NCBI GenBank assembly: GCA_963701175.1 | Contig: OY969573.1 | Location: forward strand, 385,232 to 449,231 | DNA: 64,000 bases | Reading direction: 5' to 3' | Origin: an uncultured Solirubrobacteraceae bacterium | Lineage (GTDB): Bacteria > Actinomycetota > Thermoleophilia > Solirubrobacterales > Solirubrobacteraceae | In this document: one piece after another, positions 47,108-58,817 of the stretch | Layout: each line of letters begins with the position of its first letter | Numbering within the stretch: the stretch's first letter is position 1 | The notes under the pieces: model-generated | What the model was told of the DNA's origin: nothing | What the model saw: the letters and a program-made list of their open reading frames with translations, nothing else | The model's database searches: none | Position numbers and translations under genes: made by a program

Positions 47108-49264
<2,157 letters not shown>

Positions 49265-49388
49265 CCCCGGGGCTTGCGGTGGCTTGCGGCTGTTAGCCGT
49301 TTGCCCTGCAAATCGAGCGGTTTTAGCTGAGAAGCGGCGCTGCCGTTTGCGGTTGCCTGCGGGCGTTGCATTGTCACCCCGTTGCCCC

Positions 49389-49937
49389 CTAGGACCAGAC
49401 GCCAGCGGCGCGCAAGGCGGCTGCCGCGAGAATCGCCAGCATCACGGAGAGTGCGCCGACATCACGCCAGCGGACGGAGCCGTGGGCCGCCTGATGGCCA
49501 GCCAGGAATGGCACAGCGACCGGAATGGCGACCAACACCATCGCGCTGCCAACGAGCCCGATCGTGATGTCCGATTTGGCCTGTGCAGTCGGGTGTCCGG
49601 TGGCAAGCACGTGGAGCGCCGCGGTCGCTCCAAGCACGGGCCAAAGCAGCAACGTGAACGCATTGAGCAGGGCAGCAAACTCGCCGCGCGAGAGGAGGTC
49701 GAAGATTTTGGCCTGGTAAACCATCGCTAGGTAGAGGACCGGGATGATCGTGGCCGTCACCTCGTAGAACGCGAGCGGGTCGCCGTGCGGGTGGGCCGCT
49801 GCGGCAGCGGCGACGGCGGCCGCTTTGGTCGCAGCGCCTACTTCATGAAGCGTCGTGATGAGCGTGCTGGGGTGCGGGTGCGCCGCCAGTCTCAGCCGCG
49901 CCAGCACCACTGACCGCGGCATCAAGAAAGGCAGCAT
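49389..49937 (-). CDS. membrane protein (3-4 TM), element cargo
   Basis: hydrophobic helices FYEVTATIIPVLYLAM etc.; 5' end overlaps the integrase tail, start uncertain. Confidence 0.6.
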   Translation of the reverse strand: MLPFLMPRSVVLARLRLAAHPHPSTLITTLHEVGAATKAAAVAAAAAAHPHGDPLAFYEVTATIIPVLYLAMVYQAKIFDLLSRGEFAALLNAFTLLLWPVLGATAALHVLATGHPTAQAKSDITIGLVGSAMVLVAIPVAVPFLAGHQAAHGSVRWRDVGALSVMLAILAAAALRAAGVWS

Positions 49938-50973
49938 CCCCTAAACCCTCGTCCATCAGGTGGACGTAAGTGCGCAGCGTGAAGCCGGGATCGGCGTGCC
50001 CCAGCCACTCTTGGACTTGCTTGACGTCCCGCCCGGCGGCGAACAGGAGCGAGGCACAGGTGTGCCGGAACGTGTGGAAGCCCACCCACTCCATGCCCAG
50101 CGCAGCCGCAGCGGGCGCCAGGACCCGCTTGCGCAGGTTGTGCGGCGCCATCGGCGTCCCGGCCTTGGTCGGCCACAGGGGCGCCTGCGGACCGCCGTAG
50201 CGCTTCCCCCGCAGCCCCAACAGCGTGGCGACCATACCCGGCGCCAGCGGGACGTCGCGCACGCTGTGGCCGGTTTTGAGGTTGCGTTCTTCGCCCTTGT
50301 AGATCTGGCGCCGCACCTTGACGTGCGGGCGTGCGCCAAGCTCCACGTCTTCCCAGCGCAGCCCTATGGCCTCGCTGATCCGCAGCCCGGTTTGCGCCAG
50401 GAATGTAAAGAACGGCCGCCACTCGGACGGCAGCGCTGCCAGCACCAGGCCAAGCTCGGCACGCGTCATGACCTTGACCTTGCTGGGGGTGGGCGCCAGG
50501 TCCAGGCTCACGCCTTGGCAGGGATTGGCCGCGATGTCGCCGTGCTGGTAGGCCGTTGCGAACAGCACCTTCAGCGCGACCATGTGGGCGCGGATGCTGG
50601 GCGTGCCGGTACCTTCCGACTGCAACTGCCCCACGAAGGCTTCAATGTCTTTCGGGCGAATGTCCTTCATGCGCTGGCGGCCAAAGAACGGGATTGCGTG
50701 CCGCTCAATGGCGCGCTTATACCCCTGCCGCGTGAAGTGCGTGATGCCACGGCTGGGCTTGCGCCCACGGTAGGTCGCCAGCCACTTTTCGGCGTAATCG
50801 TCGAATCGCGCGTTGCTGGCGGGTTGGGTCTCACCCGTGGCCCGCTTGCCCTTGGCTTCGCGCGCCTCAGTTAGCGTGCGGAATGCTTCGCGGTGTTGTT
50901 TGCCCCGGTCGTACCACGTGATGACGAAGCGGCCACCCCGTTTGTAGATGCCGGGGTACTTCGTGCGTTCCAT
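49843..50973 (-). CDS. int: tyrosine recombinase / phage integrase
   Basis: GLRISE (R), FHTFRH (HxxR), LGH, LRTYVH (Y); N-terminal arm-binding and SAM-like regions; ATG 50973. Confidence 0.96.
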   Translation of the reverse strand: MERTKYPGIYKRGGRFVITWYDRGKQHREAFRTLTEAREAKGKRATGETQPASNARFDDYAEKWLATYRGRKPSRGITHFTRQGYKRAIERHAIPFFGRQRMKDIRPKDIEAFVGQLQSEGTGTPSIRAHMVALKVLFATAYQHGDIAANPCQGVSLDLAPTPSKVKVMTRAELGLVLAALPSEWRPFFTFLAQTGLRISEAIGLRWEDVELGARPHVKVRRQIYKGEERNLKTGHSVRDVPLAPGMVATLLGLRGKRYGGPQAPLWPTKAGTPMAPHNLRKRVLAPAAAALGMEWVGFHTFRHTCASLLFAAGRDVKQVQEWLGHADPGFTLRTYVHLMDEGLGDAAFLDAAVSGAGAAETGGAPAPQHAHHDAS

Positions 50974-51060
50974 TTTCGCGCCCAACTGCTTGCCTCCATT
51001 CACTTGCTGTTGCCCTGCAAGGCCGCGCGCCGCGACAGTGAGCGCACGCGCGGCTGGTGA

Positions 51061-51300
51061 CTACTCGGCCTGTGCCTGCCACGCTTTGATGAGCTTTTTC
51101 ACAGCCGGGTCGGTGAGCGACGGCCAGCGGTAGCGGCTGCCGAATCCCACGCCCAGATCTTGCGCCCGCAAGAACTTGCGGACCTCGCGCGGGTCCGCGC
51201 CGAGCTTGCTAGCGAGCTCTTTGACGCCGATCCCGCCCTCCGTAGCGGCCTTTGCGGCCTTAGTTGCGGTGCTGGGCTTGGCGGTAGCTGTAGCGGGCAT
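51061..51300 (-). CDS. small basic HTH-like DNA-binding protein
   Basis: 79 aa, IGVKELASKLGADPREVRKFLR; strong SD AGGAGG. Confidence 0.75.
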   Translation of the reverse strand: MPATATAKPSTATKAAKAATEGGIGVKELASKLGADPREVRKFLRAQDLGVGFGSRYRWPSLTDPAVKKLIKAWQAQAE

Positions 51301-51435
51301 GTGTGCCTCCTGTGTTTTGTGGTGAATTGGCTTGCTGTGGGCAAACCTACGACAAGCCGCTTCACACTCCCAAGGAAGACTTAGGTTGCGTATCCCTAAC
51401 CGGGACCTTTGTGATTTCGCCTCACAATCGAGCCG

Positions 51436-51702
51436 CCCCCCGGCGCTCAACCCAAGAGGTAAAAGGGAGCGCCGGGGGGACGACTGCCCAGCCGGGCCGA
51501 GCGTTCCGGCCGGGCGTTGCCCCGGTGATTACACACCGGGACAAACTATGGGGGGCCGTCTGCTTCGGTACCGACAGGGCCTAACAAACGACTCCCCCCG
51601 CCCACACTTGCCTTCCCGTGGGCGTGCCTCCGCGGAAAGGTAAACGGAGGCAAGCTGTCGGGCCGTCCGGGACCGGAGAAGTAGAGGGCACCGGACGGCC
51701 CG
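51436..51702. other. non-coding array of stem-loops
   Basis: stems at 51436-51479 (13 bp), 51486-51515, 51521-51540, 51601-51622, 51625-51652, 51659-51702 (12 bp). Confidence 0.75.
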
Positions 51703-51746
51703 CCCTGAGCACGGCTAGAGAAGGACCGCGCCCAAGCCTGTGAAGA

Positions 51747-52394
51747 TCAGCCTGCAACGTCCAGGCCCTCCAGCTCTGCCGCCTCTGCCACAGCTTCGCC
51801 GGGCTCCAGTTCGAGCAGTTCTATGCCGGGCGGCCGTGCCTTCCACCCTTGGATCACAGGCGCCAGCACGTAATCGTCCACAGGGAATGGCGGCATCGGC
51901 GCGATGCGTACGGCGTGGCAGAGAGGCACCCACTCCACCTGTGCTCGCGCCCACGCCTCCTGCGCGCGGCGGTACGCGTCTACCATCTCATGCAGCGCTG
52001 CGTCCGCCAGTTTGGAGGCTTTCTCAGCCTCCATGGCGAAGTCCTCGAAGTACGCGCTGTAAAGCTGCTCCAACTCGTACTCCAAATCCTTGCGGGAACT
52101 CAGCGCGCTGTTCGCACCGGCCAACGCCTTCTCGTACGCGTCGTCCGCGTTTGCCGCCCGCGTTTGGGCCTCAGTCAGTTGGGCATCGCTGCCCTTGCCC
52201 TTGGCCGCCGCGCTTTCGGCGTCTGCCAGCGCCCGGTGGAGCTTGCCTTGCAGGCGTTCTGCTTTCTGCCGGTAGCTCGTCTGTTGGCTGTAGTAGTCGT
52301 AACAACTCTGTATCTCTTGGCGCAGCCGGTCTCGCTCGCGGAGCGGATTGGGTTTGCTGCCTCTGAGTCCTCGTGCTTTGGCCATTGCCTTCAC
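51747..52394 (-). CDS. 215-aa alpha-helical coiled-coil protein
   Basis: heptad-rich Ala/Glu/Lys sequence; GTGA overlap with the upstream gene. Confidence 0.8.
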   Translation of the reverse strand: MKAMAKARGLRGSKPNPLRERDRLRQEIQSCYDYYSQQTSYRQKAERLQGKLHRALADAESAAAKGKGSDAQLTEAQTRAANADDAYEKALAGANSALSSRKDLEYELEQLYSAYFEDFAMEAEKASKLADAALHEMVDAYRRAQEAWARAQVEWVPLCHAVRIAPMPPFPVDDYVLAPVIQGWKARPPGIELLELEPGEAVAEAAELEGLDVAG

Positions 52395-52573
52395 CCTTCC
52401 GCTAGTACTGCGTTGACCTCGTCGATGCGCGCTGCCACTTCCTCTGTCGTCATTTTCTGTATACGTGGGATTGTTAGTTTCTCGGGCTGCTCGTCTTCCG
52501 CAGCCTGCCGCTCATCTTCTCGTCCCAAGTCGTAGGCTTTGCGCTCGGCGTCTGTGTCAAATTCTCTAGGCAC
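52391..52573 (-). CDS. 60-aa acidic helical protein, scaffold C-terminus-like
   Basis: SD AAGGAG, GTG 52573 overlapping the terL end; ends KMTTEEVAARIDEVNAVLAEG. Confidence 0.65.
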   Translation of the reverse strand: MPREFDTDAERKAYDLGREDERQAAEDEQPEKLTIPRIQKMTTEEVAARIDEVNAVLAEG

Positions 52574-54113
52574 TTTTGACTCCTTCCTTGACGAAGAATT
52601 GTCCTGCGGTAAACCCTTCTGGCTGCGCCTTGGCCACAGGCGCGTAGGTGGTGAATTGGTCGCTGGCCACGGATTGCAGGATTGGCACTTCCGGCACACA
52701 CAAGCCTCCCCCCGTTTCCACGGTGCCGCAGGCCAGCTCGGGCACCCTGGCGTCGGCCGGAGCCCGCACGGAGGCCGCTAGGTGTCCCAAATGACACACG
52801 ACGCGGTGGGCGCGCGGCGGTTTATGCGGCACGGTGGCCAGCATCAGGGAGTCGGCATGGTCGTCGTGGGTCGCGGCGTCCTCGGCCTCAATGTGAGTAA
52901 AGCCGCGCTCGCGCTGCTCAAAGCGCAGCCCGGCGAGCTGGCGCAGTAGGTCCGGATCGCGCGGTAGGACGAGCTGGCCGCGCTCAAGCATTCCCAGGAT
53001 GAGCGAGTAGCCCGTCGTTTTGGTCGCAGCGGTGGTGTGGACGAACTCCCAGCGGCGTTTGGTGCGGTCGTCGCGCTCGCTGCGTGATTGCGCGGCCAGG
53101 CGCCTAAGCTCGCTGCTGGGATAGGCCCCGACTCCGTTTACCTCGGTGGCCACATACGAGAAGGGCTTGAGATTGGCCACAGTCGCTTTGACGACCCTGT
53201 GCAGTTGTTCGCCGGGCGGCCAGCCGTAGGACAGCGCAACGAAGCGCGGCATCGGCTCTGCGTCTGGATTCAAGGCGCCCACAGGCAGTCGGAACACAGC
53301 CGCCACGCTGCAACAGTCGTAGGAGACGCCCGTGTCAAATCCCAGGATGCCTGTGGCCGGAATGCGCAGGTGCTCAAAGCGAGGGACCGCGATGTCGGCG
53401 GTGCAGCTCTCAAGAAGCTCCTGCGAGAACAGCGAGCCAATCGCGTCACCCCAAGTGCCATCCAGCTCGGCTGCCGCCTCGGCCCGGCTCATGCGTGAGC
53501 GCTCACGGGCTATGAAGTCGGCATCCAGCGTGGGATTCATGTCCATCGTCCAGCTGAACGAGGCGTAGTCCGAGTCGCCCTGCGCGCCGCGTTCATAGGC
53601 CCGACGGAAGAAGCCTTTTCCCCACGGGCTGCCCAAGATCAGGATTCGGCTACCGGTGCCGCGTTCATCCAGTGCGATGAAGCGCGCCGCGTTCCACATG
53701 TCGTCGGGCATGAACCCGGCCTCATCCAGAATGAGCAGCCGCACGCCTTTGCCCAGCCCGCGCACCTGGCGCTGCGAGGCGGGCAGCGACACGATTTCAC
53801 TCCGGTTGCTCAGAATGATGCGAGTGGCGTAGTCGTCCACCACGGCGCCGCGCGTGAGCGTGTGGGAGTTGAGGTCGTCGCCTATGGCTTCGCACACGCG
53901 CCGGGCGCTGTCCTGGCCCGCGCTCAGAATCACCACCTTGCATCCAGCGGTGCTGAAAGCGGTGTGCATCGCCTCAACCTGTGCAGTCTCAGTCTTGCCG
54001 GAGCGGCGTCCAGCGCTTACGACGCGGTAGAAAGCGGCGCTCTCCGTCAGGCGGCGCTGATGACCCCACAGCGGCCGGTGCAGGACCTTCTCTGCGAACT
54101 CCGCGACGTTCAT
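52566..54113 (-). CDS. terL: terminase large subunit
   Basis: LWGHQ, Walker A SAGRRSGKT, Walker B LLILDEAG, coupling motif GSP, nuclease GFDTG...EVNGVG...HDDHADS; ATG 54113 overlaps upstream TGA. Confidence 0.9.
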   Translation of the reverse strand: MNVAEFAEKVLHRPLWGHQRRLTESAAFYRVVSAGRRSGKTETAQVEAMHTAFSTAGCKVVILSAGQDSARRVCEAIGDDLNSHTLTRGAVVDDYATRIILSNRSEIVSLPASQRQVRGLGKGVRLLILDEAGFMPDDMWNAARFIALDERGTGSRILILGSPWGKGFFRRAYERGAQGDSDYASFSWTMDMNPTLDADFIARERSRMSRAEAAAELDGTWGDAIGSLFSQELLESCTADIAVPRFEHLRIPATGILGFDTGVSYDCCSVAAVFRLPVGALNPDAEPMPRFVALSYGWPPGEQLHRVVKATVANLKPFSYVATEVNGVGAYPSSELRRLAAQSRSERDDRTKRRWEFVHTTAATKTTGYSLILGMLERGQLVLPRDPDLLRQLAGLRFEQRERGFTHIEAEDAATHDDHADSLMLATVPHKPPRAHRVVCHLGHLAASVRAPADARVPELACGTVETGGGLCVPEVPILQSVASDQFTTYAPVAKAQPEGFTAGQFFVKEGVKSA

Positions 54114-54523
54114 CGGCTGGACGGGCTCGTTGGGAACTGCTCGCCGAATGCGGCGTAGGGCCGCCCGGACTCCCACCGCTTGGACGCCTGCTGAAACGAT
54201 TTCGGCGGGATCACGGTTTTCGGATTGATGCCGCGCTCCGGTGCGTGCTTGGGCGCGGTGTCCGTGGTCTGATGCATCTCGGGAGGGCTGACGTGCGCGG
54301 TCTCGCCCTGCGCGGCGTATGCCTCCACAGCCGGGATGAGTGCCACAGGCGTGGCAGGTTTGGGCTTCTCAAGATCGCTGAGCTGTGGGCCGTGCTGCGG
54401 GTAGTCGTCGGGGGTCGGGTTGTCGCTGGACTGGAACGGCGCCCGGCCAGGTGTCTCTAGTCCGGCCGGGACGCTGCCCACGTTGCCCCACGGCAGCGTG
54501 GGATTGGGGTTAGCTGACTTCAT
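54110..54523 (-). CDS. Pro-rich, probably disordered protein between terS and terL
   Basis: 137 aa; ATGA overlaps at both ends indicate translational coupling. Confidence 0.7.
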   Translation of the reverse strand: MKSANPNPTLPWGNVGSVPAGLETPGRAPFQSSDNPTPDDYPQHGPQLSDLEKPKPATPVALIPAVEAYAAQGETAHVSPPEMHQTTDTAPKHAPERGINPKTVIPPKSFQQASKRWESGRPYAAFGEQFPTSPSSR

Positions 54524-55005
54524 TCGGTACTCCCTTCGTCGTCGGATAAGCCGAGCTCGCGCAACTGCTGAGCGCGCAGCTTCGGGTCGGGATTGGACAT
54601 CGCGGTTGCCAGGTCGATTCGCTTGACGTCCACGCCCAACCGGGCGCGGGCGGCGGGATTCATGCCCAAGCTGGCGAGCAACTTGGCCGCTGTGGACGTC
54701 AGCCTGCGCTCCCAGTTGGCCGCGCTTCTCGGTTTGCCCTTGGCGTCCAGCGGACCGTGCTCGTCAATCCAAGCGCTGACGGACTCCAAGCGGGCCAACG
54801 TGCGGGCCGCCAGGCGCACCGTGTGGGCGTCCGCCGGGGGCAGTTGGTTGTTTGCCACGCGCACAGGCGCGGCGGCCGCCAGGGACTCGTACAGGCGGTC
54901 CTCAATCTCGCGCACGCGGACGGCCGGTGGCTCGGCGTTGGCGCCGTGGATGAGATGACGCTTGTTCCCTTTCGGCGGGGGAGGCGGCTTTCGCTTAGTG
55001 CCCAT
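54520..55005 (-). CDS. terS: terminase small subunit
   Basis: KGNKRHLIHGAN (GN.NA.KHG-like) and LGMNPAARARLG (P27-like LGLTP..RARL) motifs, upstream of terL. Confidence 0.78.
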   Translation of the reverse strand: MGTKRKPPPPPKGNKRHLIHGANAEPPAVRVREIEDRLYESLAAAAPVRVANNQLPPADAHTVRLAARTLARLESVSAWIDEHGPLDAKGKPRSAANWERRLTSTAAKLLASLGMNPAARARLGVDVKRIDLATAMSNPDPKLRAQQLRELGLSDDEGSTE

Positions 55006-55227
55006 CTCCAACCGTCCTTTCTCGTTTCGTACGCGAGAGGGGGTGCGCGAACTCCGCGTCCAGCTCCCCAGACAGGTATCCCCCCCGCCACGGGGTCACC
55101 CGGCACCGTGGAAGCGGCACAGGCCGCCGCTTGAGTGCCTGTTTTGCCGGTAGCGCATCGGCGTATAGACCCAGCAAACACGGGGTCCTACGCCGCAGGT
55201 CACAATGGGGTGACAATGCCCGCGGGC

Positions 55228-55527
55228 TCACTTGGCACCGCCCGCGCGTATCCAGGCGTCCAGCTCGGCGCGCTCAAATAACAGCCGCGCTCCCTCGTGC
55301 TCGTGCGGTATCCGACCCATGCTCACGAGCCGGTAAATACGGTGGCGACTGCATTTACAGTGCGCCGCCGCACCATCCACGTCCAACCACTCAGCCACAG
55401 GCTCCGCCGCCGGTAGCTGCGCAAGCACGCGCTCAGCTGCCGCTTGCACGACGGCCTCCATGAACGCGTCTGCCGCCGCCGGAGCGCGCGCAGCGCGCGG
55501 AGGCGGCTGTGCGGCGCGCTTCGTCAT
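55228..55527 (-). CDS. excisionase/AlpA-like HTH protein
   Basis: WLDVDGAAAHCKCSRHRIYRLVSMGRIP...RLLFERAELDAWI. Confidence 0.85.
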   Translation of the reverse strand: MTKRAAQPPPRAARAPAAADAFMEAVVQAAAERVLAQLPAAEPVAEWLDVDGAAAHCKCSRHRIYRLVSMGRIPHEHEGARLLFERAELDAWIRAGGAK

Positions 55528-55660
55528 GACGCGGACCTGATCTCCCGACACGTGAAGGAGTGCCTAATAGGGTCGGATCGCAGTCCTCCGCACTCGGCGC
55601 CCATATCGCGCCCGCGCGCTCTAACGTTGCGGCCACAGGCTGGATGGGGGCTCCGCGCGC

Positions 55661-57037
55661 TCACCGCTCCGCCTTCCGCTTGGCGCCCTTGCCACTACGG
55701 CGCCCACTACGGACACGCGTGGGGATGTCGGTTGTGTCTGTAGTAGCGGTAGTGGCTTTTGCAGGGGTTTTGCTACTACGGCTACTACGGTCAGTACGGA
55801 CGCCTATACGTGTGTCCGTAGTGGTGTCGGTAGTGGGCAGCAACCAGGACCACTCTGTCGGCGCTGGCACGCTGCCAGGGCGGCGCCTGTGGTAAATGCC
55901 CAGCTTGTCCCGGGCACGGGTTACGCTGCGCGCGTCGTAGCCGTCGGCCTCGCATTTCGCCACGATTGGCGATGCCAGATGCCACTGGCCGTCGTGCGGT
56001 AACAGCTCGCGAAGTAGGTCTTCTAGCCGCGCCGCTTTGGACGGGTTGCGCTCAGATTTGCGTTTCGCGGCGATCTGCGCAATGGCTTCGTCGGCTGACA
56101 GCTCGCCGCCGTCGCGCATGTCAACAGCTAGCGGGCCTGTGAGCTGTTCGCCGTGCTTGTTGCGAAACTGGTACTCGTCGATAGCAAACGTCAGCGCGTG
56201 CGGACGCTTGGCGTGATTGCTTTTTCCGTGGACAAGCAGCGTGCGCTCAGGCTCGTCAAGGTCATGGAACAGGAAGATGCTGCCGCGCGCTACCGCCCCG
56301 TATTGGTGAGCGCCAGGTGTGATGTCACGCGCGCTTTCTCCCGCCTTGTTTGTGTGCAGCGTCCCGATGACGGCGATGTCGGCGTCTTTAGCTAGCGTCT
56401 TAGCTGGACGCAGCGCGGCGCGGAGCTGCTTGGGGTGGTGGTCGTTGACCTCGACCCCGAGGTTGTCCACCAGTGAGTCCAGATACAGCACGCGTGCCCC
56501 CGAGTCATCGACTGCGTCACGTATGCGATCCTTGTCTCCCCCGAGCGTGATGTAGCCGTCGTCCGGCGGCTCCCATAGCTCGACGCGTCGCAGATCCGCT
56601 TTCGCGGCGTACAGGCGCGGCGTCCATACCGTGTCGAAGTCGTCCTCGTCGGCAATGACGGCGACGGTGACGGGTTCGCCGTGCAAGTCGCCGCGCAGCT
56701 TGCCGCGGGTAAGGCGTGCAAAGAGCCAAGGGACAAGCGTGCCCTTGCCGATGCCCTCTTCGCCGATCAGCAGCGTCAGGTACCCGAGAAGCACGCGGTC
56801 CTGCCACGCCCATTCGACTTGGCGGGCGCGTCGGATATCAGCCTTGCGACGCTTGAGCGGCGCGCGCGACTCCGACCTACCTTTAGCCGCCCGCGCTGCC
56901 GCCTCGTCTTCGATTTCTATGAGCCGGGCTGTCTCTCTAACGACGTCCTCACGGCTCGGTCCGTGGCCGTTCTGTTTCGCCGCCCATTCGGCCGCTTCGC
57001 GGTCGATACGCTCGGACGCTGTCTCGGTGGGGCTCAC
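55661..57037 (-). CDS. AAA ATPase / RepA-like replicative helicase with C-terminal winged helix
   Basis: Walker A GEEGIGKG, Walker B LYLDSL, HTNK, GAHQYGAVAR, KSNH. Confidence 0.85.
   Translation of the reverse strand: MSPTETASERIDREAAEWAAKQNGHGPSREDVVRETARLIEIEDEAAARAAKGRSESRAPLKRRKADIRRARQVEWAWQDRVLLGYLTLLIGEEGIGKGTLVPWLFARLTRGKLRGDLHGEPVTVAVIADEDDFDTVWTPRLYAAKADLRRVELWEPPDDGYITLGGDKDRIRDAVDDSGARVLYLDSLVDNLGVEVNDHHPKQLRAALRPAKTLAKDADIAVIGTLHTNKAGESARDITPGAHQYGAVARGSIFLFHDLDEPERTLLVHGKSNHAKRPHALTFAIDEYQFRNKHGEQLTGPLAVDMRDGGELSADEAIAQIAAKRKSERNPSKAARLEDLLRELLPHDGQWHLASPIVAKCEADGYDARSVTRARDKLGIYHRRRPGSVPAPTEWSWLLPTTDTTTDTRIGVRTDRSSRSSKTPAKATTATTDTTDIPTRVRSGRRSGKGAKRKAER
55694..55834. repeat. 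iteron-like ACTACGG repeats in both orientations inside the rep 3' end (candidate origin)
   Basis: ACTACGG at 55694, 55706, 55775, 55784; inverted exact copy at 55816 and variants at 55738, 55747, 55828. Confidence 0.65.
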
Positions 57038-57408
57038 TCCGGCTCACCGTCCCACGCTTCGACAACGCCGCCGAGCCCGAAGTAGTCCTCACTTACGGTA
57101 ATAAGGCGCGACCCGCGCCACGCTAAGTGAGGTTGGTCGCTATCAGGCGCGCCGCGTGCCGCGATGAACCGCCTGGCGCGGTCCCTACGGCTCCGGGCGC
57201 GTGCCCGCGGCCTGGCGGTGGCCGTAGCACGCGCAGGGCGCTTAGACGCCTTCGCGCCGGCGATGGCGCGGCGCACAAAACGGGGGAAATGCTCGACCTC
57301 GTCGCCGCAGCGCATAGGGCTGAGCCCGGCAATCTCGTCCGGCGACAATTGCGGCAGGCGATGGCGCCACGACCGCAGGCATTCGCGATGTTCGCGCTGT
57401 GCGCTCAC
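57034..57408 (-). CDS. Arg-rich hypothetical protein
   Basis: 124 aa; 4-bp overlaps with both neighbours. Confidence 0.65.
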   Translation of the reverse strand: MSAQREHRECLRSWRHRLPQLSPDEIAGLSPMRCGDEVEHFPRFVRRAIAGAKASKRPARATATARPRARARSRRDRARRFIAARGAPDSDQPHLAWRGSRLITVSEDYFGLGGVVEAWDGEPE

Positions 57409-57632
57409 GGCTTGTGTCCGTTCTGGCTTGGCCAGTCGATCTTGCCAAGCTCGGCTTCCAGCAGTTTCCTGGTGGACCTGAGTGGGTTGGGACTGCGGCC
57501 CGTCTCTATGTGGCTGATTCCCACATGCGTCATCCCGGTTCTGTCAGCGAGCTCGCGCAGACTGATTTTCATGCGTTTGCGCGCCGCGGCGACGGGATGG
57601 AGTGTGCCGTTCTTCGTTTCATTGAGCCGCAT
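57405..57632 (-). CDS. XRE/Cro-like HTH regulator
   Basis: RKRMKISLRELADRTGMTHVGISHIETGR. Confidence 0.85.
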   Translation of the reverse strand: MRLNETKNGTLHPVAAARKRMKISLRELADRTGMTHVGISHIETGRSPNPLRSTRKLLEAELGKIDWPSQNGHKP

Positions 57633-57642
57633 GTGTAGTATC

Positions 57643-57651
57643 AGTTTACCA
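57643..57651 (-). promoter_or_regulatory. extended -10 TGG-TAAACT for the cro-rep-xis-ter operon (near-leaderless)
   Basis: 10 nt upstream of ATG 57632; no SD seen. Confidence 0.55.
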
Positions 57652-57712
57652 CGCATGAATGGGCGGTCGGGCAGCGGCAACCCCGGCCAGGGCCACCGCT
57701 ACCCGCGCGTTC

Positions 57713-57976
57713 CTACTTAGGGGCGTAGCGGCAACGTGCGGTGATCGCCGCGCCCACCGCTCGCTCGGGCGAGTCACCCTCGTAGAGACGAGACGCGATT
57801 TCCCGCATCAGCGGGTGCAGCGCACTGATGGTGACGTCGGGCTGCCACTCCAGAAACGTCTCGATCTGCTCGCGCTGCTCTTCCACCGTCTCGGTAGGAC
57901 AGTCCAGCAATTGCTCCGTCGCCCACAACCGCAGCTCTGCCCGGCGCTCCTTCGACAGCTCTTTGGTCTTCGCCAT
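57713..57976 (-). CDS. hypothetical protein (element)
   Basis: 87 aa, SD AGGAGG. Confidence 0.7.
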   Translation of the reverse strand: MAKTKELSKERRAELRLWATEQLLDCPTETVEEQREQIETFLEWQPDVTISALHPLMREIASRLYEGDSPERAVGAAITARCRYAPK

Positions 57977-58159
57977 TTTCAGAACCTCCTTTCGTTAGGG
58001 GGTCCCAAAGTCCACCACCGGGAGCCCCGGCTGTGGGCAAATTCGAGCCCTAACACGCGCACGCGCGTTTATAGGGCCGCCAGAGTGCGTTTTCTTTCCG
58101 TCCTGGGCGGCTGATAGTTCTATATCCCCAAATCGTCGTGAATCGAAAGGAGCGGCCCC

Positions 58160-58450
58160 ATGGAGGCCGGAGAAATACGTTTTCAGCTGGAGATGCTGGG
58201 CAAAGACCTCGACCGATACAAGTCGGATCAGATAGTGGAGTGGCGGGTCGGCAAGGTCGCGAACGCCTTGATTGAGGAGGCCCGGGCGGCGTTGCCCGGC
58301 AACCCGGTGTTGGAGGCGATCGAGCCGTTTACACCGACCGTGCGACAGGGCGGCTACGTCGCGAAAGCGAAGGCCGCAGACGTAACCGCGATCGTGCGGC
58401 AGGCGGCGACGGTCCTTCCCGTGTCAGTGCCCAAATTCGCCGTCGTGTGA
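58160..58450 (+). CDS. hypothetical protein (element cargo, only plus-strand gene)
   Basis: 96 aa, SD AAAGGAG. Confidence 0.72.
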   Translation: MEAGEIRFQLEMLGKDLDRYKSDQIVEWRVGKVANALIEEARAALPGNPVLEAIEPFTPTVRQGGYVAKAKAADVTAIVRQAATVLPVSVPKFAVV

Positions 58451-58587
58451 GCTAGTCCCGCTCGGCCGTCCCTTGGCGGCAGATTGTGATTTTGATTGTC
58501 ACCCTGCCCTGTGGACGGCCCCTGCTCTCAGCAAAAACCGCCTACTTGCAGGCAGTTATCGCGCTCGGAGTCCCCGCGATTCGCTAC

Positions 58588-58599
58588 TCATCAAGTAGC
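58588..58599 (+). repeat. attR core TCATCAAGTAGC within inverted repeat CGCTACT-CATCA-AGTAGCG
   Basis: identical to 49254-49265. Confidence 0.9.
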
Positions 58600-58607
58600 G
58601 CGCTGCC

Positions 58608-58817
58608 CTACTCCGCCGCACAGAAAACCCCGCTCGTCGTGCGGGGTTTTCTGTCGCCCTCAGCGGCGTCGCTGCGCGCGTTCTTCCCGCTTGACCCTTT
58701 TCTGTTCTGCCCGTTTCCGCTCGGCTTCGCTCCTGGCACGGTTCTCGGCCTTTCGCCTTCGGCCGGAAGTGCCGCGGTCTCGGGCGCGGTCCCAGACCGT
58801 GCGTATCGCGGATACAC
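58608..58817 (-). CDS. possible small basic disordered protein
   Basis: 69 aa following the GH18 stop by 6 bp; no SD; runs through the terminator. Confidence 0.3.
   Translation of the reverse strand: MYPRYARSGTAPETAALPAEGERPRTVPGAKPSGNGQNRKGSSGKNARSDAAEGDRKPRTTSGVFCAAE
58620..58654. terminator. bidirectional intrinsic terminator (original GSIII terminator)
   Basis: 14-bp stem ACAGAAAACCCCGC/GCGGGGTTTTCTGT with 7-nt loop, 20 bp past attR. Confidence 0.85.

Follow-up and report, generated by a model that had tools for sequence, protein, structure and literature searches.

The 64,000-nucleotide stretch of DNA analyzed here, referred to as the window, comes from an uncultured soil actinobacterium of the family Solirubrobacteraceae (order Solirubrobacterales; GenBank assembly GCA_963701175.1, contig OY969573.1, positions 385,232 to 449,231 of the forward strand). 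It contains an integrative element of 9.3 kb (∼49266-58599) that encodes both subunits of a phage terminase, TerS and TerL, but no recognizable portal or capsid. This element is probably a helper-dependent phage satellite that carries a complete terminase holoenzyme, and it belongs to a family that is conserved and apparently undescribed. The host genome is a single contig of 3.93 Mb and is 94% complete; the GC content of the window is high (∼64-75%), and the nearest relatives of its proteins are found in Solirubrobacteraceae and Thermoleophilia metagenome-assembled genomes (MAGs).

The terminase genes lie in a minus-strand operon of five open reading frames (ORFs), terS, orfX, terL, orf60, and orf215, which overlap by 4, 4, 8, and 4 bp in turn. 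The terS start is the ATG at 55005, with an AGGA sequence ∼10 nucleotides upstream. The terS stop and the orfX ATG share the sequence ATGA (54523-54520), as do the orfX stop and the terL ATG (54113-54110); the terL stop codon, TAG (52568-52566), falls within the first 8 nucleotides of orf60 (GTGCCTAG, start 52573), and the orf60 stop and the orf215 GTG share the sequence GTGA (52394-52391). No internal stop codon or frameshift was present in any of the five frames. Direct reading of the minus strand thus bore out an earlier prediction, made from the sequence without database searches, of an intact, translationally coupled TerS-X-TerL module with overlaps of 4-8 bp. Short overlaps are weak evidence alone because they are common in compact high-GC operons, but overlaps and intact frames recurred in the called genes of relatives, which was counted as stronger evidence.

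The TerL start was placed at the ATG at 54113, giving a protein of 515 residues; a longer frame of 536 residues opening with GTG was unsupported by the N termini of homologues. TerL matched Pfam PF03237 (E = 9e-9) and PHROG 2 (E = 4e-35, over residues 31-455). The original prediction also held that TerL retains its Walker A and B motifs, coupling motif, and nuclease acidic residues, and all of these were located: Walker A as AGRRSGKT (residues 34-41), Walker B as LLILDE (126-131), and the coupling motif as GSP (161-163), with Asp260, Glu324, Asp417, Asp418, and Asp421, together with Walker B Glu131, invariant in 22 homologues. Walker B Asp130 is replaced by glutamate in 2 of the 22. A profile built from these 22 sequences matched the ATPase of T4/RB49 gp17 (E = 1.7e-11), aligning AGRRSGKT, LLILDE, and GSP with SRQLGKT, MIYIDE, and TTT of T4 gp17, and the nuclease domain was matched by profile at E = 0.003-0.006. 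The AlphaFold2 (AF2) model of TerL (pLDDT 85.6, pTM 0.82) matched full-length T4 gp17 (E = 3e-18) and also the D6E, Sf6, and HK97 terminases; taken by domain, it aligned with the P74-26 ATPase at a TM score of 0.76 and with the G20c nuclease at a TM score of 0.72 (E = 8e-7).

Accordingly, the protein has the features of a T4 gp17-like (Terminase_6) large terminase, namely an ASCE-type ATPase, an RNase H-like nuclease, and a neighboring TerS in the same operon. The one feature lacking, a portal-bearing procapsid encoded by the same genome, concerns the context and not the enzyme. To our knowledge, a full ATPase-plus-nuclease TerL accompanied by TerS has no established role besides DNA packaging into portal-bearing procapsids. 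From residue ∼430 to the end, TerL is predicted to form four short β-strands and one helix, a region that is confidently modeled and conserved within the family up to residue ∼490. Pro429, Ala446, Thr467, Gly470, Pro477, Leu479, and Gln480 are invariant in this region of ∼85 residues, which falls beyond the solved TerL nuclease domains in alignments. In three TerL homologues (P0046, P0097, and P0103), Walker A reads KARRTGGT and not RRxGK(T/S), with all other motifs kept. Judged from the alignment, the catalytic lysine in these proteins appears to have been relocated five residues upstream, an arrangement that recalls lambda gpA.

The matches of TerS were weaker but consistent (PF05119, E = 3e-5, 24.8 bits against a cut-off of 24.7; PHROG 83, E = 2.4e-5). 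The assignment is also backed by gene position and by homologues that score better, such as that of locus L065, and TerS homologues precede terL in 18 of 19 pooled elements of the family. Homologues of orfX were found only at loci L004 and L012; elsewhere the corresponding ORF is shorter, absent, or replaced by a SnoaL-like gene on the opposite strand. By this comparison, orfX is a variable, non-core gene and the least conserved part of the module.

Homologues of orf60, with lengths of 54-69 residues, come after terL in most family members; orf60 itself had no family match. The orf215 protein was confidently modeled by AF2 (pLDDT 80.7) as three long antiparallel helices (residues 17-64, 70-114, and 116-161) followed by a less ordered tail. 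Its family comprises 178 representatives at 50% clustering, mostly of 180-260 residues, in which Trp148, Trp155, Pro171, and Pro188 are the most conserved residues. No match to orf215 was found in Pfam, PHROGs, PADLOC, or NCBIfam, and 90 members of its family gave one isolated weak match in PHROGs. Foldseek searches against BFVD and the PDB returned only generic coiled coils (tape-measure proteins, BAR domains, Vipp1, and colicins), none at E ≤ 1e-3. More broadly, PADLOC and NCBIfam gave nothing for the ten element proteins scanned.

TerL had 191 scored relatives, nearly all of them metagenome proteins and many on contigs of 8-9.5 kb. Inspection of gene context revealed the same layout at more than 20 loci in Thermoleophilia MAGs and metagenomes (L003, L004, L006, L008 with two tandem copies, L012, L014, L015, L017, L018, L020, L022, and L061-L068). 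The common order starts with regulators and a replication module, after which come, in most cases, an HTH_17 gene, then terS, in some cases a variable ORF of small size, terL, an ORF of 54-84 residues, a coiled-coil protein of ∼180-263 residues, small ORFs, and an integrase; only at L068 is the integrase at the opposite end. In the close set, the TerL proteins were 45-79% identical to that of the window; two more distant members, L067 and L068, had lower values. The replication module is swapped among AAA_25, Prim-Pol, D5_N helicase, RepB primase, and DUF3631 types, with the block of TerS, TerL, and the 60- and 200-residue proteins held constant. Most elements are flanked by direct repeats of 16-46 bp, mostly the 3′ halves of tRNA genes, and the repeat spacing or circle size was 8449-10366 bp in the 16 elements that could be delimited in this way. 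In a sample of 401 species genomes from the class, a search with the TerL profile matched just 4, which indicates a patchy distribution.

A second, diverged copy is present in the genome of the window itself (L003:5162-14812, equivalent to G000:C1 ∼302160-311810). The copies of its flanking 44-bp tRNA-type direct repeat are separated by 9607 bp, and its replicase is of the Prim-Pol/PriCT type in place of AAA_25; identity to the window copy is 59% for TerL, 50% for TerS, 40% for orf215, and 63% for the integrase. At L008:587-15155, two elements lie in tandem, with TerL proteins 28% (first copy) and 50% (second copy) identical to that of the window, and both have the opposite-strand SnoaL-like gene between terS and terL instead of orfX. 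At L012:12811-14046, an additional cargo ORF of 411 residues, without a Pfam or PHROG match, lies between orf215 and the integrase and explains the 10.1-kb size of that element. A TerL match in two pieces on a 7.5-kb metagenome contig (L083:633-2098) may be a frameshifted or interrupted copy. An untypical relative (L016/L060:3982-11606), with a TerL 55% identical to that of the window, has TerS and TerL followed by a coiled coil of 228 residues, two small ORFs, and a tape-measure protein of 1126 residues (PF10145, phrog_1533). No capsid, portal, or tail-tube genes were seen at this locus, which lies 4.6 kb from the contig end.

Ratios of nonsynonymous to synonymous substitution (dN/dS) were calculated by the Nei-Gojobori method between the window and six relatives. 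For TerL, the ratio was 0.17-0.23 with the five closer relatives and 0.37 with the most distant one. Values of 0.23-0.47 were obtained for TerS, 0.42-0.45 for orfX, ∼0.3 for orf60, and 0.12-0.62 for orf215; the integrase gave 0.14-0.27 with the four closer relatives. These ratios are rough because dS is at or beyond saturation (∼1-2; not computable for some short genes). No ratio approaches 1, and the values point to purifying selection on every gene of the module. That frames remain intact at TerL identities as low as 45% is independent evidence of long-term constraint. Values near 1 had been named at the outset as an outcome that would count against the proposal, and none was found; dN/dS well below 1, together with modules unlinked to portal or capsid genes (see below), supports selection rather than decay, as was first proposed.

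The absence of portal and capsid genes, also part of the original prediction, was confirmed in the element, in the genome, and in 19 related elements. None of the ORFs of the window element matched a portal, capsid, protease, tail, or lysis family in Pfam, nor did the ten largest, from the integrase to orf124, match one in PHROGs. The whole 3.93-Mb genome gave no match to PF04860, PF05133, PF05065, or PF10145. To cover the family, 56 ORFs of at least 140 residues were pooled from 19 delimited elements after removal of homologues of TerL, TerS, integrase, AAA_25, xis, xre, and orf215. Against Pfam, the pooled ORFs matched 18 families, mainly of replication and DNA-binding proteins; against PHROGs, the named families among the 25 of 42 listed were of replication proteins, helicases, or regulators. 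No capsid, portal, protease, or adaptor/connector was identified in the 19 elements by Pfam or among those 25 PHROG families. Constant linkage of homologous modules to portal or capsid genes, which would have pointed away from a capsid-less element, was not observed: neither kind of gene lay beside the module at any of the more than 20 loci examined.

The insertion site of the element is the 3′ end of a gene for type III glutamine synthetase (47108-49264). A 17-nucleotide imperfect direct repeat flanks it (GCTGTTCATCAAGTAGC on the left and GCTACTCATCAAGTAGC on the right), the two copies being 9334 bp apart and 15/17 identical with an exact core of 12 nucleotides. The hairpin and T-run that lie 3′ of the right copy look like the displaced terminator of the glutamine synthetase gene. 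A relative in another MAG (L006; integrase 82% and TerL 58% identical to those of the window) occupies the corresponding gene end, and both of its junctions, 9198 bp apart, have the same core. No tRNA gene is present in the 64-kb window. Integration of the element by its tyrosine integrase takes place at a short sequence mimicking a host gene's 3′ end, and the element carries its own, exchangeable replication module. An empty attachment site was sought in a relative of the same genus (G204), in which the glutamine synthetase gene ends with the similar sequence TTCATCAAGTAA and is followed by no element genes; the downstream region is not syntenic, and no clean empty site was obtained. The features of the element are collected in Table 1.

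Table 1. Coordinates (window positions) of features of the 9.3-kb integrative element
Feature	Position	Strand	Remarks
attL core, 17 nucleotides, GCTGTTCATCAAGTAGC	49249..49265	+	Spans last codons and stop of glutamine synthetase gene
Tyrosine integrase, 386 aa	49843..51003	-	PF00589, E = 4e-20; phrog_1, E = 1e-66
Small conserved protein adjoining integrase, ∼79 aa	51061..51300	-	Position and sequence kept in L003, L004, L006, L012, and L014; weak PHROG matches to excisionase/regulator family; possible DNA-binding or directionality factor
orf215	51747..52394	-	Last gene of packaging operon; predicted three-helix coiled coil with conserved Trp/Pro-rich C-terminal tail
orf60, 60 aa	52391..52573	-	Overlaps terL (8 bp) and orf215 (4 bp)
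TerL, 515 aa	52566..54113	-	ATPase and RNase H-like nuclease domains; family-specific C-terminal region (∼430-515) with predicted β-structure
orfX, Pro-rich, 137 aa	54110..54523	-	Between terS and terL
TerS, 161 aa	54520..55005	-	PF05119; phrog_83
ATTGTSAC motif pair	55199..55217	-	In 222-bp gap upstream of terS
HTH_17 (MerR/excisionase-type) DNA-binding protein, 107 aa	55228..55551	-	PF12728, E = 7e-10; upstream of terS in most family members
AAA_25 (RepA/DnaB-like) replication protein, 458 aa	55661..57037	-	PF13481, E = 4e-18; phrog_10729 DNA polymerase/primase, E = 7e-20
orf124	57034..57408	-	Coupled to replication gene; homologues in L006 and L012
XRE-type HTH regulator, 91 aa	57405..57680	-	PF01381, E = 4e-8
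orf87	57713-57976	-	ORF call; no family match
orf96	58160-58450	+	ORF call; no family match
attR core	58583..58599	+	Followed by hairpin and T-run at ∼58625-58650

The divergent orf87/orf96 stretch (57713..58450) is a possible switch region. The motif ATTGTSAC had four matches in the window (49370, 55199, 55210, and 58495), all within the element, against 0.81 expected; one lies near each end of the element, and the pair lies upstream of terS. The pair is a candidate operator or protein-binding site, and the four matches may be integrase-arm or regulator sites. Between attL and the integrase, an ORF for a hydrophobic protein of 182 residues (49389-49937), the 5′ end of which overlaps the 3′ end of the integrase gene by 95 bp, has a weak counterpart in L006 and may be cargo or a spurious frame.

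Evidence for a circular form came from two contigs of another family member. L062, a MEGAHIT k141 contig of 9452 bp, has an exact terminal overlap of 141 bp, and L081, a JGI contig of 9438 bp, has one of 127 bp. They are circular permutations, at 100% identity, of a single 9311-bp molecule and therefore represent the same circle closed by two assemblers at different points. At the level of assembly, this shows a circular or tandem topology, either of an excised or replicating form or of concatemeric or terminally redundant DNA. A further candidate circle, the 9367-bp contig L007, was rejected, being a chromosomal stretch of L006 with short host flanks.

Phage satellites are mobile elements without virion genes that become encapsidated in the particles of a helper. 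Of these traits, the lack of virion genes and mobility (att repeats and the circle of a relative) were seen, along with a packaging enzyme, and IMG/VR gave no matches. A helper-dependent satellite is the most economical reading because a full TerL with TerS is known only for packaging, because the element has no portal or capsid of its own and is mobile, and because genome size is narrow despite replicase swaps. Under this reading, the element would provide both terminase subunits and take procapsid, portal, and tail from a helper, and the late operon of terS, orfX, terL, orf60, and orf215 would be expressed after excision and replication, when a helper phage supplies procapsids. TerS would recognize a site on the DNA of the element itself, and TerL would cut this DNA and pump it into helper procapsids by docking on the helper portal, possibly via its family-specific C-terminal region. 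The 60-residue and ∼200-residue coiled-coil proteins would act on helper assembly, for example by redirecting capsid size or interfering with packaging; these roles are suggested by gene position and conservation. The size range of 8.4-10.4 kb, held through module swaps, would then reflect a packaging constraint. The satellite function first proposed for the module is therefore upheld in part: selection and a capsid-less element family with a complete terminase are supported, and from these we infer docking of TerL on a helper portal and sequence-specific packaging of satellite DNA. A more specific and tentative version is that only a compatible helper portal is needed, contacted via the TerL C-terminal region, with orf60 and the coiled coil remodeling or monopolizing helper procapsids. 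This would explain the ∼9-kb size amid replicase exchange.

Several observations weigh against the satellite reading. No helper phage was identified, and the host genome itself has no recognizable portal, HK97-type capsid, or tape-measure gene. The nearest TerL of an isolated phage is just 26% identical. No family member was returned from IMG/VR by searches with TerL itself or with profiles of TerL and of orf215, the best TerL match being 35% identical on a 4-kb contig; there is therefore no evidence from this source of element DNA ever having been encapsidated, and the circular assembly shows topology, not packaging. All hosts of the family are uncultured MAGs, and the searches assigned no function to orf60, orf215, or orfX.

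Unlike the element, remote IMG/VR phage contigs with the nearest viral TerL proteins (21-27% identity) have a portal-sized ORF of 490-660 residues after terL; one that was tested had no significant Pfam match. Among five other host genomes tested, the PF04860 portal was absent in four and the PF05065 capsid in all. The genome of the tandem pair (L008/L019), G404, contains a separate small element ∼190 kb away (L105:12651-19814), with an integrase, xis, AAA_25, a protein of 519 residues containing an S78 protease, a PF04860 portal, and its own TerL in divergent orientation; it represents, in Thermoleophilia, a mini-element of the capsid-forming or phiRv-like kind. The genome of the window also contains a third small element (L010:5850-18092, equivalent to G000:C1 ∼146850-159090), which has a TerL of another type (PF03354/PF20441), a fused N6/N4 methylase-Mrr-like endonuclease, an AAA_25 replicase, an integrase, and no portal or capsid nearby.

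These surveys bear on the foremost alternative, which is nevertheless unlikely, that the element is half of a split or unrecognized virus with its capsid and portal supplied by a separate resident element or by genes too diverged to detect. The portal-bearing element in G404 and the many element ORFs without a family match are compatible with such an arrangement, but the G404 element has a TerL of its own, and PF04860 is lacking in the genome of the window and in four of the five other hosts, as PF05065 is in all. Moreover, besides replication proteins, the unmatched ORFs are mostly below 300 residues, with 411 the largest; none is portal-like or HK97-capsid-like, and orf215 is modeled as a plain three-helix coiled coil.

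It is similarly improbable that TerS, TerL, and the coiled coils serve interference or defense, sabotaging the packaging of invaders by portal competition or by cutting of phage DNA, in an element whose own spread is rare and takes other routes. Anti-phage activity is a frequent second function of satellites and islands, and both the conserved small proteins after terL and the want of a known encapsidated form would fit. No PADLOC match was obtained, however, and defense alone would not explain a size range of 8.4-10.4 kb maintained through module swaps. Defense and a satellite lifestyle can also both hold, as with the Staphylococcus aureus pathogenicity islands (SaPIs) and the PICI-like elements (PLEs).

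Less probable again is an integrative episome in which TerS and TerL resolve or process the concatemers of its own replication and transfer is capsid-free, for example by a conjugation-like or vesicle route. Autonomous replication genes and the circular form of a family member are in keeping with this; against it, no FtsK/TraB-like translocase, relaxase, or other transfer gene was found by Pfam among the element ORFs, and we know of no precedent for a full ATPase-plus-nuclease TerL kept with TerS outside capsid packaging. Assignment as an actinomycete integrative and conjugative element was rejected, since no element ORF had a Pfam match to an FtsK/TraB-like double-stranded DNA translocase or to a spread gene. 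Finally, a decaying prophage remnant with retained terS and terL, to which the absence of structural and lysis genes could be attributed, is highly improbable and is effectively excluded by the family comparison, given that the compact layout and intact frames are shared by more than 20 diverged elements that have att repeats of their own, that dN/dS is below 1 throughout, that a circular form exists, and that no copy contains pseudogenized structural genes.

If the element is a helper-dependent satellite, as we favor, the family predicts that helper range is set by TerL-portal compatibility and not by TerS-TerL compatibility, and orf60 and orf215 provide two conserved candidates for new capsid-hijacking functions. 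Thermoleophilia, a lineage common in soil from which no isolated phages are known to us, would also gain its first candidate satellites. During annotation, islands of this type are readily mistaken for degraded prophages.

Among known satellites, phage-inducible chromosomal islands (PICIs) have TerS and no other phage genes; in capsid-forming PICIs (cf-PICIs), it is accompanied by TerL and by capsid, portal, and connector genes (PMC10085698). PICIs and SaPIs resemble the element in being integrase islands of ∼9-15 kb with a regulator, their own primase or replicase, TerS, and small genes behind terS, which in PICIs serve morphogenesis or interference; genes for capsid, portal, or tail are lacking (PMC10085698), and the order int ... 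rep ... terS is similar. In PICIs, TerS alone redirects packaging, with the TerL of the helper, whereas the present family always has a full TerL too. In terms of the PICI definition used by SatelliteFinder (PMC10085698), the element has an end integrase (PF00589) and its own replicase, but TerS is not its only packaging gene; HTH_17 (PF12728, MerR/excisionase-like) and XRE regulators are present, as judged by Pfam and not by SatelliteFinder profiles. Furthermore, orf60 and orf215 show no similarity to PICI Cpm, Ppi, or Rpp, the hosts are Thermoleophilia, and, with regard to helper-dependent induction, excision, and packaging, what was seen is a circular form of one relative. The cf-PICIs share satellite-encoded TerL and TerS with the element (PMC10085698; 10.1101/2022.09.08.507074), but they encode their own capsid, portal, protease, and head-tail adaptor/connector and steal only tails; these genes were looked for and are absent in the element.

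The PLEs, PICMIs (phage-inducible chromosomal minimalist islands), and VEIMEs (virion-encapsidated integrative mobile elements) are, like the element, small and capsid-less; they rely on the packaging and capsid machinery of the helper, and some package concatemers of their small genome (10.1101/2024.04.22.590561; PMC9618062). Any terminase gene that they carry encodes TerS only, and none is reported with TerL (PMC9618062). Small helper-dependent elements (∼11 kb) are also known in Actinomycetota, namely the EPIPs of Mycolicibacterium (PMC12822802) and MiniFlayer and MulchRoom of Streptomyces (PMC10690885). The EPIPs encode a serine integrase, TerS, major capsid protein, scaffold, adaptors, and tape measure without TerL (PMC12822802), and MiniFlayer and MulchRoom encode capsid machinery (PMC10690885); the tape-measure gene of the untypical relative L016/L060 recalls that of the EPIPs (PMC12822802). 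No sequence relationship was found between the element and the EPIPs, MiniFlayer, or MulchRoom. Mini-prophages of the phiRv1 and phiRv2 type in Mycobacterium are ∼10 kb and encode a terminase and a primase along with an integrase and an HTH_17-type Xis, but also a capsid protein and a prohead protease. The L105 element of G404 resembles this type, which the window element does not.

The full texts searched contained no account of satellites that lack a capsid and yet encode both subunits of the terminase. Known capsid-less satellites use at most a small terminase and the motor of the helper, and the cf-PICIs with their own TerL build heads, so that a family with the motor and without the shell differs from both. 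A complete motor without a shell is a different division of labor between parasite and helper.

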